IMG/VR virus record: IMGVR_UViG_3300032123_000052
Coordinates: 128,001-192,000 of that record
Reading direction: 5' to 3' (one strand)
DNA from: a virus
Lineage: Duplodnaviria > Caudoviricetes
Length of the DNA: 64,000 nucleotides
The notes below the pieces were generated by a model. That model was not told the DNA's origin, did no database searches, and saw only the letters and a program-made list of their open reading frames with translations. Position numbers and translations under genes: made by a program. Below are positions 6,603 to 59,741 of this stretch, one piece after another. How positions within the stretch are numbered: the first letter of the stretch is position 1; each line of letters opens with the position of its first letter.

Positions 6603-6969
6603 TTGAGCCACGCCTCCTTTTGTCTGCTGGCCATTCAAAGTCTTCAGGGGTCATAGGTTCTTCTCTTTCAAAAAAGAATGATAGCGCATACCCATGAGTA
6701 TCGTATCCCATCGCAATCATTATATTCTCTACTTCACCCTGAATATCAGTGTAGAAAAAGAACTCCTCATCATCCCAGGTATGTGCCCTGATACCGCTGT
6801 GTGGGAGCACATAGGTTTTATCAGGGGTATCATCGACAACAGGCAGTTTTTTCTGCTCGAGGAATAGTCCTTCCTTCCCGGCTGTTTCGATAAGCCCCTT
6901 TCTATCTTCTTCGTTTATTGTTTGTTGATATGCCAATATCTCTATTATCTTCAGTAATGTTTGCTTCAT
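6589..6969 (-). CDS. Hypothetical protein
   Basis: ORF track; GGAGG RBS. Confidence 0.65.
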   Translation of the reverse strand: MKQTLLKIIEILAYQQTINEEDRKGLIETAGKEGLFLEQKKLPVVDDTPDKTYVLPHSGIRAHTWDDEEFFFYTDIQGEVENIMIAMGYDTHGYALSFFFEREEPMTPEDFEWPADKRRRGSNEEA

Positions 6970-7000
6970 TATTATCCTCCGTCCAAATTTTGTTTAGCAT

Positions 7001-7567
7001 TTATTTTATAAATTTTTCTATCATCGCCATAGTGACTTCAGGCAAATTCATTCCGGTGTAACGAATTACCTGCGGGTGCTTAAGGCGTTTATTGTAGTCA
7101 TGGGCAGGCATTATGACGAGCCCTCTTGGTCTCCATTTCAACCACCCTTCTATATAATCCTGATAGTCATCAACTAGTATATTGCCGTACACCTGGCTTT
7201 TATTACGGGTGATGGTGATGTCAACATCCTCACCGAGATGTGTGTCTACCCACATCTTTTTTCCCATCCATGACTTTGGATTCCTTTTCGGCCCCTGGGT
7301 TAATACCATTCTCTGGAATCCTATATTTCCAGCAACTGTCCAAATGTCCATACCGAGCTTAAATGTTTTAAGACCAGTCCACCAACTTGCTTTAGAGCGT
7401 ATTAAATCCATTCTCGCCCTCAAATATGTTGGGTGGTTTTTTCTTGACAACACGGTAATAACATCTTCATTTGGCGATCTCAGACCCTCTAAACTTTTGA
7501 GTAGCGCCTGATCATAATCACACAACGTTCCATCAAGATCAAATAGTGCAATATTATCTGATTTCAA
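7001..7567 (-). CDS. HAD-superfamily 5'(3')-deoxyribonucleotidase-like phosphatase
   Basis: Motif I FDLDGTLCD, K in RNKS, motif IV ILVDD. Confidence 0.8.
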   Translation of the reverse strand: MKSDNIALFDLDGTLCDYDQALLKSLEGLRSPNEDVITVLSRKNHPTYLRARMDLIRSKASWWTGLKTFKLGMDIWTVAGNIGFQRMVLTQGPKRNPKSWMGKKMWVDTHLGEDVDITITRNKSQVYGNILVDDYQDYIEGWLKWRPRGLVIMPAHDYNKRLKHPQVIRYTGMNLPEVTMAMIEKFIK

Positions 7568-14658: not shown

Positions 14659-14682
14659 ATACTTCCTCCTAAAATTTTATAG

Positions 14683-14755
14683 TACTTCCGGTAGGATTCG
14701 AACCTACGACCCCCTGCTTAAATGGCAGGTGCTCTACCAACTAAGCTACGGAAGT
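14683..14755 (-). tRNA. tRNA-Lys(UUU) with A33
   Basis: Full cloverleaf: ACTTCCG/CGGAAGT acceptor, GCTT/GAGC D stem, CCTGC-CATTTAA-GCAGG anticodon arm, GTAGG-TTCGAAT-CCTAC T arm; no CCA encoded. Confidence 0.9.
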
Positions 14756-14882
14756 ATATAAAAGTTTAATAAACATAACCATTCTATTGTTACACAAAGG
14801 GTTGGTGGCGCCTTTCAGCAACCACCGCACCTTTCCTGTATTTTATGTATCTGTGACAATATCAATAAGACCACCATCGGCG

Positions 14883-32027: not shown

Positions 32028-32870
32028 TTATTTGCAGACGATTTCGAAGAACATCGCATCAATGTGTTTATAATCATCATCAGTTAATTCTTTAACGTCT
32101 AATGCATCTGCGTAATTTCCATACACATCAAATTGTTTTTCGCAAAACGTGTCAAGAGTTTTAATTCGTGGGCCGCGGCCAAGCTCATCACCACTCTTTT
32201 TCTGTGAAATTAGATCCTTAACGATATTCTCTATATCGGTAAATTCATCAGATTGAACCGTTCCAATATATTTGATTATCTTATCAAATTTCATTGGGGG
32301 GATGTCGCCACCATGCCTCATCATCCATTCACACGCATAAATAGGCCTGAGTACGTACAGGTATTTTTTAACTATTACATCACCTTCGACGTTTTTAATG
32401 TACTGAGTAAAATTCTTCCTGGCCATATACTCGTAATGATGAATACCAGATTTGGTTTTAAAAAACTTTTCAGCCAATTGTTGTATAGTATAAACGATGA
32501 ATGGTTTTTTTATATATACTATAGGAGAATGTAGCCACTCAGCTACTGCTGGGTTTCCTTTTGATATTAACCTGAGTGCTTTGCTGATATCAAAACCAAC
32601 AAAATCTAACTCCTCATCCTCGAGAGATCGTATGTACTTACTTGTACCAATGTTACCTTTGTTACGGTCGATAACGTCACGCACTGGATTTATTGAGAAG
32701 TACTTGCTAATCGGCCGGGTGTAAACAAACCGGATATCATAGTCACTATCATCAGATTCAAAACCCCAAGCCCTGCTACCTGACTCACAAGCGTAGATGA
32801 TTTTTATATTCTCCATTATTTCGATATTTTTCAATATCTCGATAATTCTATTTATTTTTGTAAATTCCAC
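32028..32870 (-). CDS. Predicted nucleotidyltransferase (YcgL/COG3541-like)
   Basis: CESGSRAWGFESDDSDYDIRFVY motif. Confidence 0.85.
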   Translation of the reverse strand: MEFTKINRIIEILKNIEIMENIKIIYACESGSRAWGFESDDSDYDIRFVYTRPISKYFSINPVRDVIDRNKGNIGTSKYIRSLEDEELDFVGFDISKALRLISKGNPAVAEWLHSPIVYIKKPFIVYTIQQLAEKFFKTKSGIHHYEYMARKNFTQYIKNVEGDVIVKKYLYVLRPIYACEWMMRHGGDIPPMKFDKIIKYIGTVQSDEFTDIENIVKDLISQKKSGDELGRGPRIKTLDTFCEKQFDVYGNYADALDVKELTDDDYKHIDAMFFEIVCK

Positions 32871-33497: not shown

Positions 33498-33792
33498 TAT
33501 TTTCTCCTTATGAATAAAAAAGGTGAGCAAGTGTTCCAAGCGAATGGTAAACACCTCATTAATTAAAAATTGCGAATGTGTTTTCTTTTTCATTCTTCTT
33601 TTTATTTTTCAACTCTTCCCAATGCTTTCTACTCTTACTGCAGGTTTTGTATAGTATACAATCTGTCCCGAAAAAAGATATTTTATTAGGGCCTGCCCGC
33701 CAAGCCATACCGCAACGCAACTTAGAGAAATCAACATCACAAGTATCCTCATGATAGCATTTAGGCTTTTCCAAATTATCCTCCTTATTAAT

Positions 33793-33825
33793 AAAAAAAG
33801 GTGAGCAGACGTTTCAGGCGCTCAC
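33793..33825 (-). terminator. Intrinsic terminator
   Basis: GTGAGC...GCTCAC followed by C-T7 on the minus strand. Confidence 0.7.
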
Positions 33826-33899
33826 TAGAAAAACGGTGGTTTGAAATCTTCGTACCAACATTATCCTAATTTATAATATATAATGCCTATATAACAACG

Positions 33900-34520
33900 G
33901 ATGTATTCAAACTCATCAGACCGCCATTACCTCGGAAATCACAGCTAATCCTCGACTTTGCTTTCGCCTTCAGCACTTATCAGCCCCCTGTGTGGGTACT
34001 CCGTGCCAGCGTTGCTATATAGGTGTTTGTGTCGGCTTTGCGGAGTCGAACCGCTTCCACCAGTCCCTCAATAATTAAACTGGTGTGTTTTTGACATCTG
34101 AACCGCCTGATGAGTGCCGAAGTGATGGGCCGGGAGGGGTTGGCCTAGTCCCGTATCAGCAGTCGCTTATAGCCAACGTTGGGCCCCTCTTGTAATCACT
34201 CTTCGGTTTAGTCGGACTTTTACCGAACCTGACTGGCAGGAGTTGTATTTTTAGAGGCCTCGGCAAGGGCAGGAGCTTATCCCCACTCACTTTTATATAG
34301 CGACCTCGGCCGACCCAGCGCTTTGTTGATAATAAATTGATACGTGTGCTTCTACGCCAAAAAATCCACCTACACGTCCACATTAATACCTACTGGATAC
34401 TACGTGATAAATATTTGATTCCCAGTACCCCTATATAAAAATAGGATTCACGATTCTATGTGGAGGCGATTTACTCATTAAAGATGGCTGCCTCTAAGCC
34501 TACTACGTATCAATCAACCT
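33900..34520 (-). ncRNA. Candidate large structured ncRNA (~600 nt) with 23S-rRNA-like motifs
   Basis: GC-richer, no credible ORF, many helices including a 9-bp long-range pair (33911-33919 with 34107-34115), a T-arm motif, and GGCTTAGAGGCAGCCATC. Confidence 0.65.
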
Positions 34521-34538
34521 TTATATATCGACATTTAG

Positions 34539-35024
34539 TTAAAGTTTAGCCGAATTAACCGCAGTTTCTATAATATCTATTTTTGTTTTAAGATCGTTTA
34601 TCAGAATGGCACTTTGTTCGACATTTACTATAATTTTGTTTTTATTAACAAACATTTCGCAAGCTTTTGGATTTATAAATCCTATACTAACATCACCATC
34701 ATTAAATCCTAATATTACACCAAGTTGAAGTGTTAAAGATTCCTTGCCCCAGTTTGGTTTTATGATTTCATTTATCTTTTTTTCAATTTGACGATTTGCG
34801 CATCTAATATTAATAAATGAACTATCGGCAGATGTTAGAAGCATCCACCCAGAACCATGAAGCACACCGCTGTCAAAAAGGACATTTATTTTTTCTTGTA
34901 ATGTTCTTGCGGATAGTGTATTGATATCATTTTGAAGCACATCAATAGCACCTCGATGATAATTTATTTTATCTTGTAATTGGTTAATTTTATCTTCCAT
35001 TAAATCCTCCATGCAAAAAGACAT
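34539..35024 (-). CDS. Hypothetical protein
   Basis: ORF track; likely start MEDKI after GGAGG. Confidence 0.65.
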   Translation of the reverse strand: MSFCMEDLMEDKINQLQDKINYHRGAIDVLQNDINTLSARTLQEKINVLFDSGVLHGSGWMLLTSADSSFINIRCANRQIEKKINEIIKPNWGKESLTLQLGVILGFNDGDVSIGFINPKACEMFVNKNKIIVNVEQSAILINDLKTKIDIIETAVNSAKL

Positions 35025-35583: not shown

Positions 35584-35665
35584 AAAAATGCGCGTGAGGG
35601 TGCTCCGTCGGAGCATTATGTCGCATCGTGGCGACACATACGTTAAATGGTAAACGCTAAACAAC
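35584..35665 (-). ncRNA. tracrRNA-like RNA, copy A (downstream of the array)
   Basis: Three hairpins; CCAUUU in a loop and CCCUCACGCGC are complementary to adjacent parts of the repeat; ends in a U-run. Confidence 0.75.
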
Positions 35666-35699
35666 ATTTGGAACTATTTTTAATTTATTTAGGAAAAAA

Positions 35700-36399
35700 A
35701 ATAAGCCTTTTGCGTGCGCGGAAGAAACAATCGTTCTAAAATAATAAACGGATTATACCACCCATTTCCCTCGCGTGCGCGAAAGAAACGAGATAAAAAA
35801 CAGCCTGGTGATGTTTGCCTCCCCATTTCCCTCGCGCGCGAGAAAGAAACTGATACCGTAGTGCTATAAGGCATAACGCCTCCCCATTTCCCTCGCGCGC
35901 GCGGAAGAAACCCATGGCCAGTGAGAGTTTGACATTTTTCCTTCCCATTTCCCTCGCGCGCGCGGAAGAAACTAGAGAGAGAATTGTTAGATAACTGATA
36001 AGAACCCATTTCCCTCGCGCGCGCGGAAGAAACAGATCGTCAATGGCAATAGGGTTACCTTCACCCCCATTTCCCTCGCGCGCGCGGAAGAAACCGTCAC
36101 CAAATATTTTGCATAGTCTTTCGAAACCCATTTCCCTCGCGCGCGCGGAAGAAACGCCAGCAGGTGCCCACGACCTTGGATCCCCAGCCCATTTCCCTCG
36201 CGCGCGCGGAAGAAACTTTTCAATTTTCTCCTTATTCATTGTCAACCCCCCATTTCCCTCGCGCGCGCGGAAGAAACCGAAAAAATTAGGAGCCTCGCTG
36301 ACCTCCTCACCCATTTCCCTCGCGCGCGCGGAAGAAACAGTGGAAGCGAATTTGCGGGCAATTGGTGCTGCCCATTTCCCTCGCGCGTGCGGAAGAAAC
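35700..36399 (-). CRISPR. CRISPR array: 11 clear repeats plus 1 degenerate repeat (29 bp) and 11 spacers of 32 bp
   Basis: Plus-strand repeats CCCATTTCCCTCGCGCGCGCGGAAGAAAC start at 35761, 35822, 35883, 35944, 36005, 36066, 36127, 36188, 36249, 36310 and 36371, with a decayed copy at 35700; exact 61-bp period. Left-end decay and G-U pairs in the hairpin indicate minus-strand transcription. Confidence 0.97.
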
Positions 36400-36502
36400 T
36401 GCTGGCAATTGGCCCGTCGTCACTAAACAAACAAAATACGATCTGCATTCTTAACTATAGAATTTGTATATAAAGCCTGAAATTGCATAAATTATTATTT
36501 TT

Positions 36503-36584
36503 AAAAAAGGCGCACGAGGGGGAACCGTCGGTTCCTTATGCTGCATCGTGGCAGCACATACGTTAAATGGTAAACGCTAACAAC
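36503..36584 (-). ncRNA. tracrRNA-like RNA, copy B (between effector gene and array leader)
   Basis: 920 bp from copy A; 59/71 identical with 5 compensatory pair swaps; anti-repeat CCCUCGUGCGC pairs with the repeat over 11 bp (one G-U). Confidence 0.8.
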
Positions 36585-36596
36585 TTGTTTAATAAT

Positions 36597-37925
36597 TTAT
36601 ACAACTTCAGTTTCAATCTGGACAGCAACTTTCTTATCGTCCGGTGTGGCAAAGACAGCGTCGCCTGACGTTTCTTTTTCTGGAGCTTTGGCAAGAATGG
36701 TTGTTAATTGTCCTTTTAGCTCATCTTCAACCTTATATCTCAATATGGATTCAAACTGAGATAGCTGCCATTCCATACCGCATAATAATTTTGAAGGTAG
36801 ATTGAGAATAATTATATGGCCACAGCCCCATGACTGCGCGTTGGAAATAATTCTTCTGGTCCAAAGATGGTTCTTCTCCTTTTTGCCGTTAAGCTTTCTA
36901 TTAGTAATATTTTCACTACGACCATTAATTACCTTTAGAATTTTACGGGAACCCCAATTATTAAATTTACTTCCGACAGATGCTCTTTGGTCTTTGAATT
37001 TGCTGGTAAGAATAGCCAACTCCTTGTTCCAAGCACGAGCCTCAGTAACATCTATCTTATCTGAATAATGAAACTTCTCATCACAATACATCGTAATGGC
37101 ACACTCAGGATCATCAGTAAATTCAACATACATAACCCTGTTTTTAAAGTCTTCAACAACCTTTTCCGGCATTTTGTAAGTTACTGTAAGGGTTAAATAT
37201 CTGTGCTTCTGGCCATCAGACCCATTCTTATAATTAGACCCAAGATACATTGTACCAGGTCTCCACACGTCGTCACGGAGATTTTTAAACTTCCAGAACA
37301 TGTTGTTTGGAAGACTACTCTTAACATGAAACTCTACAGGGCCAATTGAATGGTCCCATTTAACAATAATACTTTTTTCCATAAATTTCGGCTTTGCCGT
37401 CAATCGCGGCATGCCAATGCCTATTTTTCGAAACCTGGCAAAAGCACGAGATCCTTGAAGGGTAAGCCAACCGCGCGTGATTGTTTTTTTTTTAGTTGAA
37501 AATTCCGGATCTGGGTGTTTCCATGTTCCAACCACCTCATCCTTACATGAGGTCCACACGTATGACAGGACTGTAGGCATTTCCTCTTTATTTGCAAAAT
37601 CCCGAAGTTCATAAGCGTCGGCCTTATATCCAACTACACCATATGCGAGTTCAAGGATTTTTTTTGCAGATCCTTTAAATCCTTTTTTTGGTGTTAAAGT
37701 TAAATTGCCTTTTTTTGTTGTTATGGTCGCGCCTGTTGCCATTGCCATTGCTATAGCAGAAAACATTTTTCGTGCTGTAGCACGGTATAAATCTATTGAT
37801 GCAAAAATTCTACGTACCAACCCTGTTTTATCAGGATCATCAACAAAAACTTCAAACACTTGTGCCCTTGTGACTTTGTAATAGTCATCTTCATATCTTT
37901 TCTTTTGGCCTTCTTTCTTATTCAT
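36597..37925 (-). CDS. Compact TnpB/Cas12f-like type V effector, RuvC apparently inactivated and truncated
   Basis: Adjacent to the array. C-terminal NHLWTRRIISNAQSWGCGHIIILNLP and WQLSQFESILRYKV match the TnpB RuvC-II region. RuvC-I reads VMYVEF (not GIDxG), the RuvC-II Glu is replaced by Leu, and there is no Zn finger or RuvC-III. Confidence 0.75.
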   Translation of the reverse strand: MNKKEGQKKRYEDDYYKVTRAQVFEVFVDDPDKTGLVRRIFASIDLYRATARKMFSAIAMAMATGATITTKKGNLTLTPKKGFKGSAKKILELAYGVVGYKADAYELRDFANKEEMPTVLSYVWTSCKDEVVGTWKHPDPEFSTKKKTITRGWLTLQGSRAFARFRKIGIGMPRLTAKPKFMEKSIIVKWDHSIGPVEFHVKSSLPNNMFWKFKNLRDDVWRPGTMYLGSNYKNGSDGQKHRYLTLTVTYKMPEKVVEDFKNRVMYVEFTDDPECAITMYCDEKFHYSDKIDVTEARAWNKELAILTSKFKDQRASVGSKFNNWGSRKILKVINGRSENITNRKLNGKKEKNHLWTRRIISNAQSWGCGHIIILNLPSKLLCGMEWQLSQFESILRYKVEDELKGQLTTILAKAPEKETSGDAVFATPDDKKVAVQIETEVV

Positions 37926-37970
37926 TCATCCTCCAATATCTGTTATTAGATAAGGCTATTTGTTACTATT

Positions 37971-37998
37971 GTTATACCACACTAGGGTATGGAATAAC
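37971..37998 (-). promoter_or_regulatory. Promoter motif GTTATT-N13-TGGTATAAC upstream of the Cas12-like gene
   Basis: Exact match to the window-wide bipartite motif, 45 bp upstream of the start codon. Confidence 0.7.
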
Positions 37999-52530: not shown

Positions 52531-52758
52531 TTAGTTTTTCTCCTTAACAAAGAGTTAGAGCCACATCGGGATTGTTGTAAAGACTTGTCATGTTGGCCAC
52601 ACCGTTCCTTACCCTCAGAACTTTTAATAACCAACGATAGAGCATGGAGCTTGTGGAGTACTTCAAGGTATCTTGATCTAAACAACTTCTGCATAATAAT
52701 TACGCTCCCTTGTCAACTAAGGCTTCAAGCCTCGCCCCTTGTGGGCGGGGTCGTTGAC
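51249..52758 (-). mobile_element. IS200/IS605-superfamily IscB element (non-autonomous; no tnpA seen)
   Basis: Left end GTCAACGACCCCGCCCACAAGGGGCG, right-end hairpin CCCCACCCACAAGTGGATGGGGTTTCC, followed by ATGA; the empty site rebuilds an open reading frame. Confidence 0.85.
52535..52758 (-). ncRNA. omega-RNA / HEARO scaffold
   Basis: GTCAAC...GTTGAC terminal helix and typical HEARO layout directly upstream of iscB. Confidence 0.85.
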
Positions 52759-59302: not shown

Positions 59303-59345
59303 TTATAATATTTTGTACAAAATATCTGGTTTTATAACAGTATTA

Positions 59346-59741
59346 TGGAGGTGGGGACATCCGAGAGTCCCGTCCGTCAACGCCTTCAACCGAACTTCTA
59401 CATGCTTAGTTTGTGATTTAATCTTACTGCCATCAGCTTCCACAAACAGAATCAAACGACAGCCAGCTTCTAATTTCACTTATGAGTCGAAGCGCCATCA
59501 TAAGCTATGATCCTACGACTACCCGGAGATTACGGACCCATTCCTCCCAAGGTTTGTCATCTTTAATTAGATGACGGCGATGTCCTGCTTGGTGTTTGCA
59601 TAACACATAGCGCCAAACATGACATTGAAATCTATATTGGTTTTGCCAATTAGACGTTTATCGGACGATTAGCGAGGCCAACCGATAATCCTCGGCATGC
59701 AACTCAAATCTTCAAACGTTACGTCGATACCGTTCACCCCC
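59346..59741 (-). ncRNA. ssrA: tmRNA
   Basis: GGGGGTG/CACCTCC acceptor stem with G3-U70; GAACGGTATCGAC 5' motif; GCATGCCGAGG; pk1 (CGAGG/CCTCG plus ATCGG/CCGAT); tag ORF whose stop lies in the H5 loop (GTCATCT/AGATGAC). Confidence 0.92.

Follow-up and report, generated by a model that had tools for sequence, protein, structure and literature searches.

In a 208-kb phage, roughly 600 bases of the minus strand had been flagged by an earlier note as a single structured non-coding region. They probably hold three or more small RNA genes that are distinct from one another. The first of these would encode a mimic of the GTPase-associated centre (GAC), the part of 23S rRNA that uL11 binds and on which translation factors dock, and uL11 is the likeliest ligand of the mimic. 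We are fairly confident of this explanation taken as a whole, that is of the island, of the family of GAC mimics and of the proposed role through a host protein; it is drawn from sequence comparisons.

The window referred to below is the whole stretch of 64,000 nt that was analysed; it runs from base 128001 to base 192000 of an IMG/VR virus record of 208,085 bp that is rated complete. The RNA stretch lies on the minus strand between an ORF of 161 aa (34539-35024) and one of 71 aa (33559-33774), and its G+C content is 0.49-0.54 compared to ∼0.33 in the flanks. No Pfam or PHROG family was found for either of these ORFs or for a 75-aa ORF at 34156-34383. We took the latter to be spurious as it overlaps the GAC mimic and belongs to no family in the two collections. 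A search of the region 33500-34900 with Rfam 15 gave nothing at the gathering threshold and only noise at E≤10; elsewhere in the window it reported a tmRNA, a HEARO RNA and one tRNA. BLAST of the RNA stretch against GenBank phages returned nothing meaningful. Every string quoted in the earlier note was found where it had been placed, and its statement that the stretch is not an rRNA gene agrees with the lack of any LSU match at E≤10.

The GAC mimic and its family

The GAC-mimic RNA occupies 173 nt (34339-34511, minus strand; all features of the island are on this strand). It copies the whole 58-nt L11-binding GTPase-associated centre, H42-H44 (E. coli 23S 1051-1108), interrupted between U1090 and G1091 by an insert of 115 nt, and its architecture is that of 45 phage loci in which the stems of H42 and of the lower part of H43 covary. 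The two ends form an H42-like closing stem of 6 bp, with GAUACG as the 5' strand (34506-34511) and CGUAUC as the 3' strand (34339-34344); the equivalent stem covaries across the family. The H43 hairpin and loop GGCUUAGAGGCAGCCAUC (1062-1079, G at 1070; 34483-34500) contains the 23S-type loop GGCUUAGAGGCAGCC and is preceded by G1059-U1060, so that this family feature extends over 34483-34503. It is followed by the junction UUUAAUGAGU (1080-1090; 34473-34482), and the pair 1057-1081 is deleted in this copy. The variable insert (34358-34472) starts right after ...UAANGAGU, and the helix at its base covaries in the family (helix 4). Within the insert GAA (34453-34455) stands opposite AGUA (∼34398-34401) in what by eye may be a loop-E/bulged-G module. 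The H44 hairpin GCGUAGAAGCAC (1091-1102; 34346-34357) belongs to the second conserved block of the family, (U)UGGCGUNNNAGCAC, here at 34346-34360; the pattern GCGU...AGCAC was observed in all 36 distinct family members examined. A further copy of the mimic was looked for in the 208-kb genome and not found.

The earlier note had recognised a likeness to H43 at 34478-34503. The match is real, lies far beyond chance, with 48 IMG/VR contigs that contain its 18-nt core unchanged, and was understated: neither the H42 stem GAUACG/CGUAUC nor the H44 block at 34346-34357 had been noticed. The suggestion that part of the stretch imitates a ribosomal-protein binding site thus holds for one of its parts, and the imitation is much more complete than had been seen. 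One of the local helices listed with it, ACGUGU/ACACGU, conflicts with the covarying H42 stem, and another, GAGGGG/CCCCUC, falls in a stretch that is not conserved. A 23S rRNA gene or pseudogene was rejected, since the Rfam LSU model gave no match at E≤10. The only other string of at least 10 nt in common with E. coli 23S is the 13-mer GAUAAGUGCUGAA, to which we return below.

To contrast the mimic with genuine rRNA we scanned prokaryotic genomes, one per species, with the 18-mer of this locus plus NNNUAANGAG, which gave 80 loci with 81 matches listed. Among these, 74 of the 81 were true 23S genes continuing with GAGUGCGUAAUAGCUCAC, and the H43 18-mer proved to be the genuine 23S sequence of many bacterial phyla among the matches listed. 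As these matches are true 23S genes, the phage string represents a genuine GAC variant of 23S, the one that has G at 1070. The only mimic-like matches inside bacterial MAG contigs, again among the matches listed, were L108 and L137. No variation was seen among 76 true 23S sequences in the junction UAAAGAGU, at U1101 or at A1095-A1096, whereas the mimics have A at 1101 and A, U or G at 1086, and in 19 of 36 mimics the positions 1095-1097 hold triplets not found in rRNA (AGA in the copy studied here). The H44 loop, which touches factors and thiostrepton, is thus relaxed while the stems covary, which indicates that selection keeps the scaffold and not the factor-contacting loop.

Of the 48 IMG/VR contigs with an exact 18-mer, 47 have it embedded in one and the same wider motif. 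The flanks of this motif covary, for example gAUGuu...AUCAUc, gAGGuu...AUCCUu and aCUGug...AUCAGc. A second conserved block, UUGGCGUAAUAGCAC (the H44 loop), follows 55-251 nt downstream in 45 of the 47, together with the closing stem; the exceptions are L018, which is truncated, and L041. The 5-7 nt that directly follow the H44 block can pair with the bases immediately 5' of the first block, which gives the H42-like stem. The insert varies between 55 and 251 nt across the family and falls into sub-families with conserved motifs of their own, always at the same insertion point; a sarcin-ricin-like hairpin was not found in the inserts of 36 modules. In the junction A1084, A1085, A1088 and G1089 are invariant and G1087 is nearly so. 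The 48th contig (L012, a 4.4-kb viral contig) has at 1-60 the GAC sequence continuing like 23S, with GAAAGCGUAAUAGCUCAC directly next and no insert, and then runs into AT-rich non-rRNA sequence; from its sequence it could be either a compact mimic or a truncated rRNA fragment.

For the covariation test we aligned 19 modules with MAFFT and imposed a structure consisting of H42, H43, H44 and the base of the insert. Paired cells reached 86.5% compared to 69.4% in shuffles, and at most 48% in slid controls. The covariation score was 0.446 compared to 0.142 in shuffles, and none of 500 shuffles reached the observed value. Changes on both sides were found for all 6 pairs of H42 and also for the pairs 1057-1081 and 1058-1080. 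The copy studied here is mis-registered by one column in the alignment because its 1057-1081 pair is missing, and the numbers are therefore conservative for it. The family sample was collected by the exact H43 18-mer, so that conservation of the H43 loop is given by construction. Judged from these comparisons, the closing stems and the scaffold of the mimic are kept by selection.

The missing pair could also be taken as a mark of decay. A piece of host 23S rDNA taken up by the phage, or a decaying family copy, without function here would fit with that loss, with the position of the copy outside a tRNA array and with the four small ORFs that a relative has at the same place. We consider such an inert relic very improbable. 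All features of the scaffold are intact, including the 6-bp H42 stem and both loops, and captured rDNA would lack the family-specific insert at 1090/1091. Moreover L003, L014, L020 and L035 have the same variant that is one pair shorter, which makes it a sub-type and not a sign of decay.

The family is typically located among tRNA genes. At 8 distinct loci a tRNA or tmRNA on the same strand ends 13-21 nt before the start of the module, and another tRNA often follows within 120-320 nt. Overall, tRNAs were present in 32 of the 47 loci, with up to 34 in one locus. In L042 (10752-11311) the gene before the GAC mimic is a phage tmRNA, with a gap of 21 nt between the two, and a further non-canonical tRNA-like element comes after the mimic. 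The location in a tRNA array is the typical context of the family and not a structural requirement, and the present copy lies outside such an array: the only tRNA-like element is ∼220 nt downstream of the mimic and the sole tRNA is 19 kb away. This is a tRNA-Lys(UUU) at 14682-14755, the only tRNA that ARAGORN found in the 208-kb genome. With the mimic outside a tRNA array in a genome with a single tRNA, the processing route seen in other phages cannot be assumed here. On the loci compared, the mimic also occurs outside tRNA arrays and behaves as a cassette that is gained or lost between close relatives. Rfam 15 holds no family that matches the GAC mimic, and we found no description of a phage GAC/L11-mimic RNA in the searchable literature. 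The mimic thus belongs to a widespread and apparently undescribed class of phage RNA.

The tRNA-like RNA, the small conserved RNA and the surroundings of the island

The second gene is a tRNA-like RNA with a 5' extension, here called XT (∼212 nt, 34031-34242), which is conserved in the contig L180 at 6884-7087. L180 (19.6 kb) was reached via the 161-aa ORF and has the gene order Lipase_3, DUF5983, 161-aa homologue, RNA region and RlaP; at the position of the GAC mimic it has four small ORFs and no mimic. The segments 34031-34127 and 6991-7087 of L180 are 90.7% identical and the similarity reaches upstream to ∼34242. Between these two sequences, which are the entire evidence for XT, 5 pairs are kept through changes on both sides. 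The 5' hairpin (AGUCA-GG-UUCGGU ... ACCGAA-GAG-UGAUU, 34194-34234) shows compensatory changes, with AGUCA/UGAUU in the window and AGCCA/UGGUU in L180, and UUCGGU/ACCGAA and UCCGGU/AUCGGG, respectively. The tRNA-like domain (34031-34121) consists of an acceptor UCGGC/GCCGA, a D-arm-like hairpin, a 7-bp arm and a T-arm. The 7-bp arm has an invariant 14-nt loop UUAAUUAUUGAGGG (34058-34085) and reads CACCAGU/ACUGGUG in the window and CACCGGC/GCCGGUG in L180. The T-arm GCGG-UUCGACU-CCGC (34040-34054), which the earlier note had pointed out, is real and forms part of this conserved element; two of its local helices, CACCAGU/ACUGGUG and UUCGGU/ACCGAA, also stand, as they are the ones kept by the compensatory changes.

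We do not regard the XT domain as a tRNA or tRNA-Sec. The Rfam tRNA-Sec model gave 17.3 bits for the window and 23.9 bits for the copy in L180, compared to a threshold of 47. ARAGORN missed the domain by default and detected it only at the relaxed setting -ps80 with a poor anticodon arm, though T-arm and acceptor are present. An SRP-like or RNase-P-like reading of the XT hairpin was likewise set aside, since it was made by eye only and has no Rfam support. In L180 two tRNA genes (7094-7168 and 7469-7542) lie 3' of the tRNA-like RNA. By our reading of the sequence the anticodon loops of both have CUA and would be of amber-suppressor type; one tRNA reaches 50.6 bits, and the other, with 22.4 bits, is degenerate. 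Between them are ∼300 nt of unexplained G+C-rich sequence.

The third gene is a small RNA of ∼120 nt, here called Y (33893-34015), which is 78% identical to 1740-1870 of the contig L057. We found L057 by scanning metagenome contigs with a gapped pattern (T-loop, 50-75 nt, 13-mer) that returned one contig. Its flanks are unrelated to the window, and its copy of Y directly follows an aberrant tRNA-like gene. The hairpins between the conserved blocks differ in sequence between the window and L057 and keep their complementarity, which suggests a tentative fold for Y from these two sequences, the only ones that represent it. Exact-pattern scans in IMG/VR gave no further copies of XT or Y, and no further copies of Y were found in GTDB genomes (pattern scan) or in GenBank phages (BLAST). 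Two other readings of Y were tried and rejected: TGGCAC as a sigma-54 promoter, as there is no TTGC box, and CUGAUGAG...CGAAA as a hammerhead, for which there is no Rfam support and the stems misfit.

The 13-mer GAUAAGUGCUGAA (33969-33981) in Y is identical to E. coli 23S 2737-2749 and is conserved in both copies of Y, so that the domain VI match claimed for it is exact. It is, however, probably coincidental on the sequences compared. A 13-nt match to 23S was reached by 3 of 500 shuffles of the downstream part, the other conserved blocks of Y do not match rRNA, and the partner with which the 13-mer forms a stem in 23S is absent from Y. Only 1 of 45 true 23S genes with the GAC variant of the mimic has the 13-mer.

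The flagged bases had also been thought of as one large ornate RNA of ∼600 nt, in which the mimic, the tRNA-like domain and the 3' domain form a single particle of GOLLD/ROOL type. All parts lie on one strand with no convincing ORF, the G+C content is raised throughout and a lone terminator-like hairpin stands at the end. GOLLD and ROOL are also located near tRNAs (PMC12990946). Nonetheless we think a single RNA improbable, since the modules separate: L180 has XT and neither the mimic nor Y, L057 has Y alone without XT or the mimic, and the GAC mimic occurs alone in 47 IMG/VR contigs. BLAST of the downstream part (XT and Y) against 32 mimic-bearing phage records and nhmmer of the same part against the 48 loci of the 18-mer gave no match. 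This independent recurrence of the three modules argues against one 600-nt RNA. There is also no Rfam match at E≤10, be it to GOLLD, ROOL or LSU rRNA, and none at the gathering threshold. The 9-bp long-range helix (33911-33919 with 34107-34115) that was to hold the region together is not conserved either, as each arm is kept in a homologue that lacks the other: ACUCAUCAG is kept in L180, which has no Y, and L057 has other sequence in place of the 3' arm, with a local hairpin that covaries instead (GAUG/CAUC and CCUG/CAGG). The MFE z-score over the whole 651 nt was 0.0, which gives no sign of one highly structured unit; z-scores for the parts were weak as well, with -1.69 for the GAC mimic and 0.0 for the rest. 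That the stretch is non-coding RNA, as first proposed, is nevertheless supported, and we keep to the reading of separate small genes.

Between the mimic and XT lies a spacer (34243-34338) with G+C-rich hairpins and a TATATAA motif. It is absent from L180, and no homologue was found with nhmmer against the 48 loci or with BLAST against the 32 mimic-bearing phage records. The first terminator-like signal 3' of the island, as read from the sequence, is a hairpin GUGAGC...GCUCAC followed by U7 (33793-33825); a terminator scanner, which allows loops of at most 8 nt, did not report it. At the other end TATATAAAGG (34518-34527) is a possible promoter core 7 nt upstream of the GAC mimic. TATATA occurs 60 times in the window compared to 34 expected, and six of the copies are inside the RNA island. 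Examples are 33877-33893, 34016-34021, 34294-34299, 34432-34437, 34522-34527, 14755-14760 and 36467-36472; one copy abuts the 5' end of the tRNA-Lys and another is in the CRISPR leader. Going by its placement, TATATA may be a promoter core or a processing signal. We found no extended consensus around the copies in the window.

Several neighbours of the island deserve mention. An RlaP-family nucleotidyltransferase ('RNA repair pathway', E 4e-69) is encoded 1 kb downstream (32028-32870), which may hint that the island belongs to an RNA-repair context; in L180 (7601-8356) an AAA_33 kinase and a TnpB insertion lie between island and RlaP. The window also contains the tmRNA (59343-59741, 118.7 bits) and the HEARO/omega RNA (52554-52758, 113.7 bits). 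A locus at 35584-37998 includes a CRISPR array of 11 repeats of 29 nt with 32-nt spacers. The protein beside it (442 aa) has weak matches to Cas12f/Cas12u (E 4.5e-6), and two copies of a ∼75-nt element, whose hairpins differ by compensatory changes and which each have a possible anti-repeat, bracket the array. We found no link between this Cas12f-like locus and the RNA island. In particular, the island as its tracrRNA was rejected: BLAST gave no match of the 29-nt repeat in 33880-34530, and the duplex energy of the repeat, -21.7, was weaker than the 5th percentile of random 90-nt windows (-22.4) even though the target measured 651 nt. A search of IMG/VR via the flanking 161-aa ORF and RlaP found no relatives of the locus. 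A 208-aa ORF does have homologues, but their surroundings are no longer syntenic and leave no gap for an RNA, and the contig of a relative of the Cas12f-like protein ends before the RNA region.

Proposed role of the mimic

The isolated 58-nt GAC fragment folds alone and binds uL11 and thiostrepton tightly, and binding of the two to this fragment is a classic assay. It is the C-terminal domain of uL11 that binds the isolated rRNA fragment, and uL11 is needed for the activation of RelA and for factor function. In gene 1 (34339-34511) the two ends would refold into the GAC of 23S rRNA, comprising the top of H42, the H43 hairpin with the 1065-1073 loop, the 1082-1090 junction and the H44 hairpin, with the variable domain emerging between U1090 and G1091. 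We propose that the RNA is transcribed, that in other phages it is released by tRNA processing, and that it would adopt the GAC tertiary fold off the ribosome. It would then act via host proteins that recognise this fold, most likely uL11, either as a sponge or decoy for uL11 or as a handle that recruits uL11 to the inserted domain. Gene 2 (34031-34242) would provide a stable tRNA-like RNA, probably a substrate or decoy of tRNA-handling enzymes, and gene 3 (33893-34015) a conserved small RNA.

We found no genes for L11, L10 or L12 in the 208-kb genome, no L11 domain in 32 other mimic-bearing phage records and no recurrent protein family beside the module across the loci of the family. Without an L11, L10 or L12 partner encoded by the phage, any partner must come from the host. 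An autoregulatory leader of an r-protein operon was rejected on the same grounds, as the genome has none of these three genes and the next ORF (71 aa) belongs to no family.

Nearly all members have an insert, although a decoy could do without one, and the insert may thus be the functional part. In an alternative reading uL11 and the GAC fold would serve as a clamp for the insert: the fold would be a compact, ion-stabilised tertiary clamp, optionally locked by uL11, that ties together the two ends of the RNA and shields or displays the variable insert, which would be the functional part. The constant insertion point, the range of lengths (55-251 nt), the sub-families with their own motifs and the relaxed factor-contacting nucleotides of the H44 loop are all in line with such a scaffold. 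So is L028 (4597-5025), where the P6 region of a group I intron (Rfam 64.8 bits) contains an entire mimic module as a 192-nt insertion, and which shows the module also in use as a peripheral domain of a ribozyme. On the other hand, nucleotides of the junction and loop that are not needed for clamping ends stay nearly invariant, and L012, provided that it is a mimic rather than a piece of true 23S, is nearly free of insert and would have no cargo. We regard the scaffold as unlikely, though it is the strongest of the rivals.

The RNA could instead soak up a toxin of host defence or of a competitor that attacks the GAC (Tre23-type ADP-ribosyltransferases, nucleases), sparing the ribosomes. We rate this toxin decoy as somewhat less likely again. 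To our knowledge no anti-phage system targets the GAC, which speaks against it. The idea parallels phage tRNAs that replace or out-compete cleaved host tRNAs, the family sits among phage tRNA and tmRNA genes, and the rapid variation at 1095-1097 could reflect an arms race. Toxins aimed at the GAC do exist, as Tre23 ADP-ribosylates the H44 nucleotides 1095-1098 (PMC8661411). However, it is on ribosomes that modification by Tre23 has been shown, and in many mimics the nucleotides that such a toxin would recognise are themselves altered. On the sequence evidence the likeliest role of the mimic is therefore still that of a decoy or handle for host uL11 or another factor recognising the site.

A broader reading is more speculative. 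Large phages may carry dedicated RNA genes whose products recreate, away from the ribosome, one of its functional centres as a whole to capture uL11, a factor or a toxin, as independently exchanged cassettes of a mobile 'translation-RNA island'; we offer this as a tentative proposal that has a real chance of being right but falls short of an even one. If it were true, the captured uL11, GAC-recognising factor or toxin would leave translation reprogrammed or protected during infection, with uL11 titration, diversion of factors or the absorption of attacks on the ribosome as possible effects. The mimic would be one cassette beside the tRNA-like RNA and the conserved small RNA, exchanged independently between unrelated phages. 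A stand-alone RNA gene with an entire tertiary domain of 23S, under selection across phages that number from dozens to hundreds, would give viruses a new route onto translation. What this locus adds is a mimic beside two further conserved small RNAs.

Comparison with known systems

The closest counterpart of the mimic is the GAC of 23S rRNA itself. Many phyla have the very same H43 hairpin and loop in their 23S, and the mimic has the same U1060/U1078, the same 1082-1090 junction, the GCGUA..AGC hairpin of H44 and the geometry of the H42 closing stem. It differs in being a free-standing phage gene and not part of an rRNA, in the 115-nt insert between U1090 and G1091, in having A and not U at 1101 and in the H44 loop AGA in place of AAC or AAU. 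Furthermore this copy lacks the 1057-1081 pair, and the sequence of H42 in the mimic is unrelated and simply complementary.

For XT we noted a likeness to the species 1 RNA (rnaC) of T4, a stable tRNA-like RNA beside the T4 tRNA genes (AF158101 70908-71046). Both have a 5' extension, an acceptor-like stem, a T-arm with a UUCGA loop, a short 3' tail and no usable anticodon arm. The likeness is one of layout only, as no sequence similarity was seen.

GOLLD and ROOL are large ornate non-coding RNAs that are frequent in the tRNA arrays of phages and prophages (PMC12286853), a preference that the mimic family has in common with them. The RNAs described here are much smaller, have no motif in common with them and an unrelated architecture, and match neither Rfam model.

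The leaders of r-protein operons, e.g. L10(L12)4 and L1, mimic rRNA binding sites as well (PMC3616713) and, like the mimic, are RNAs off the ribosome that imitate a site where a protein binds rRNA. Those leaders, however, are cis-acting parts of mRNAs upstream of r-protein genes and resemble rRNA loosely, whereas the phage mimic is a near-exact copy of a whole tertiary domain, has no r-protein gene after it and is typically found in tRNA arrays.
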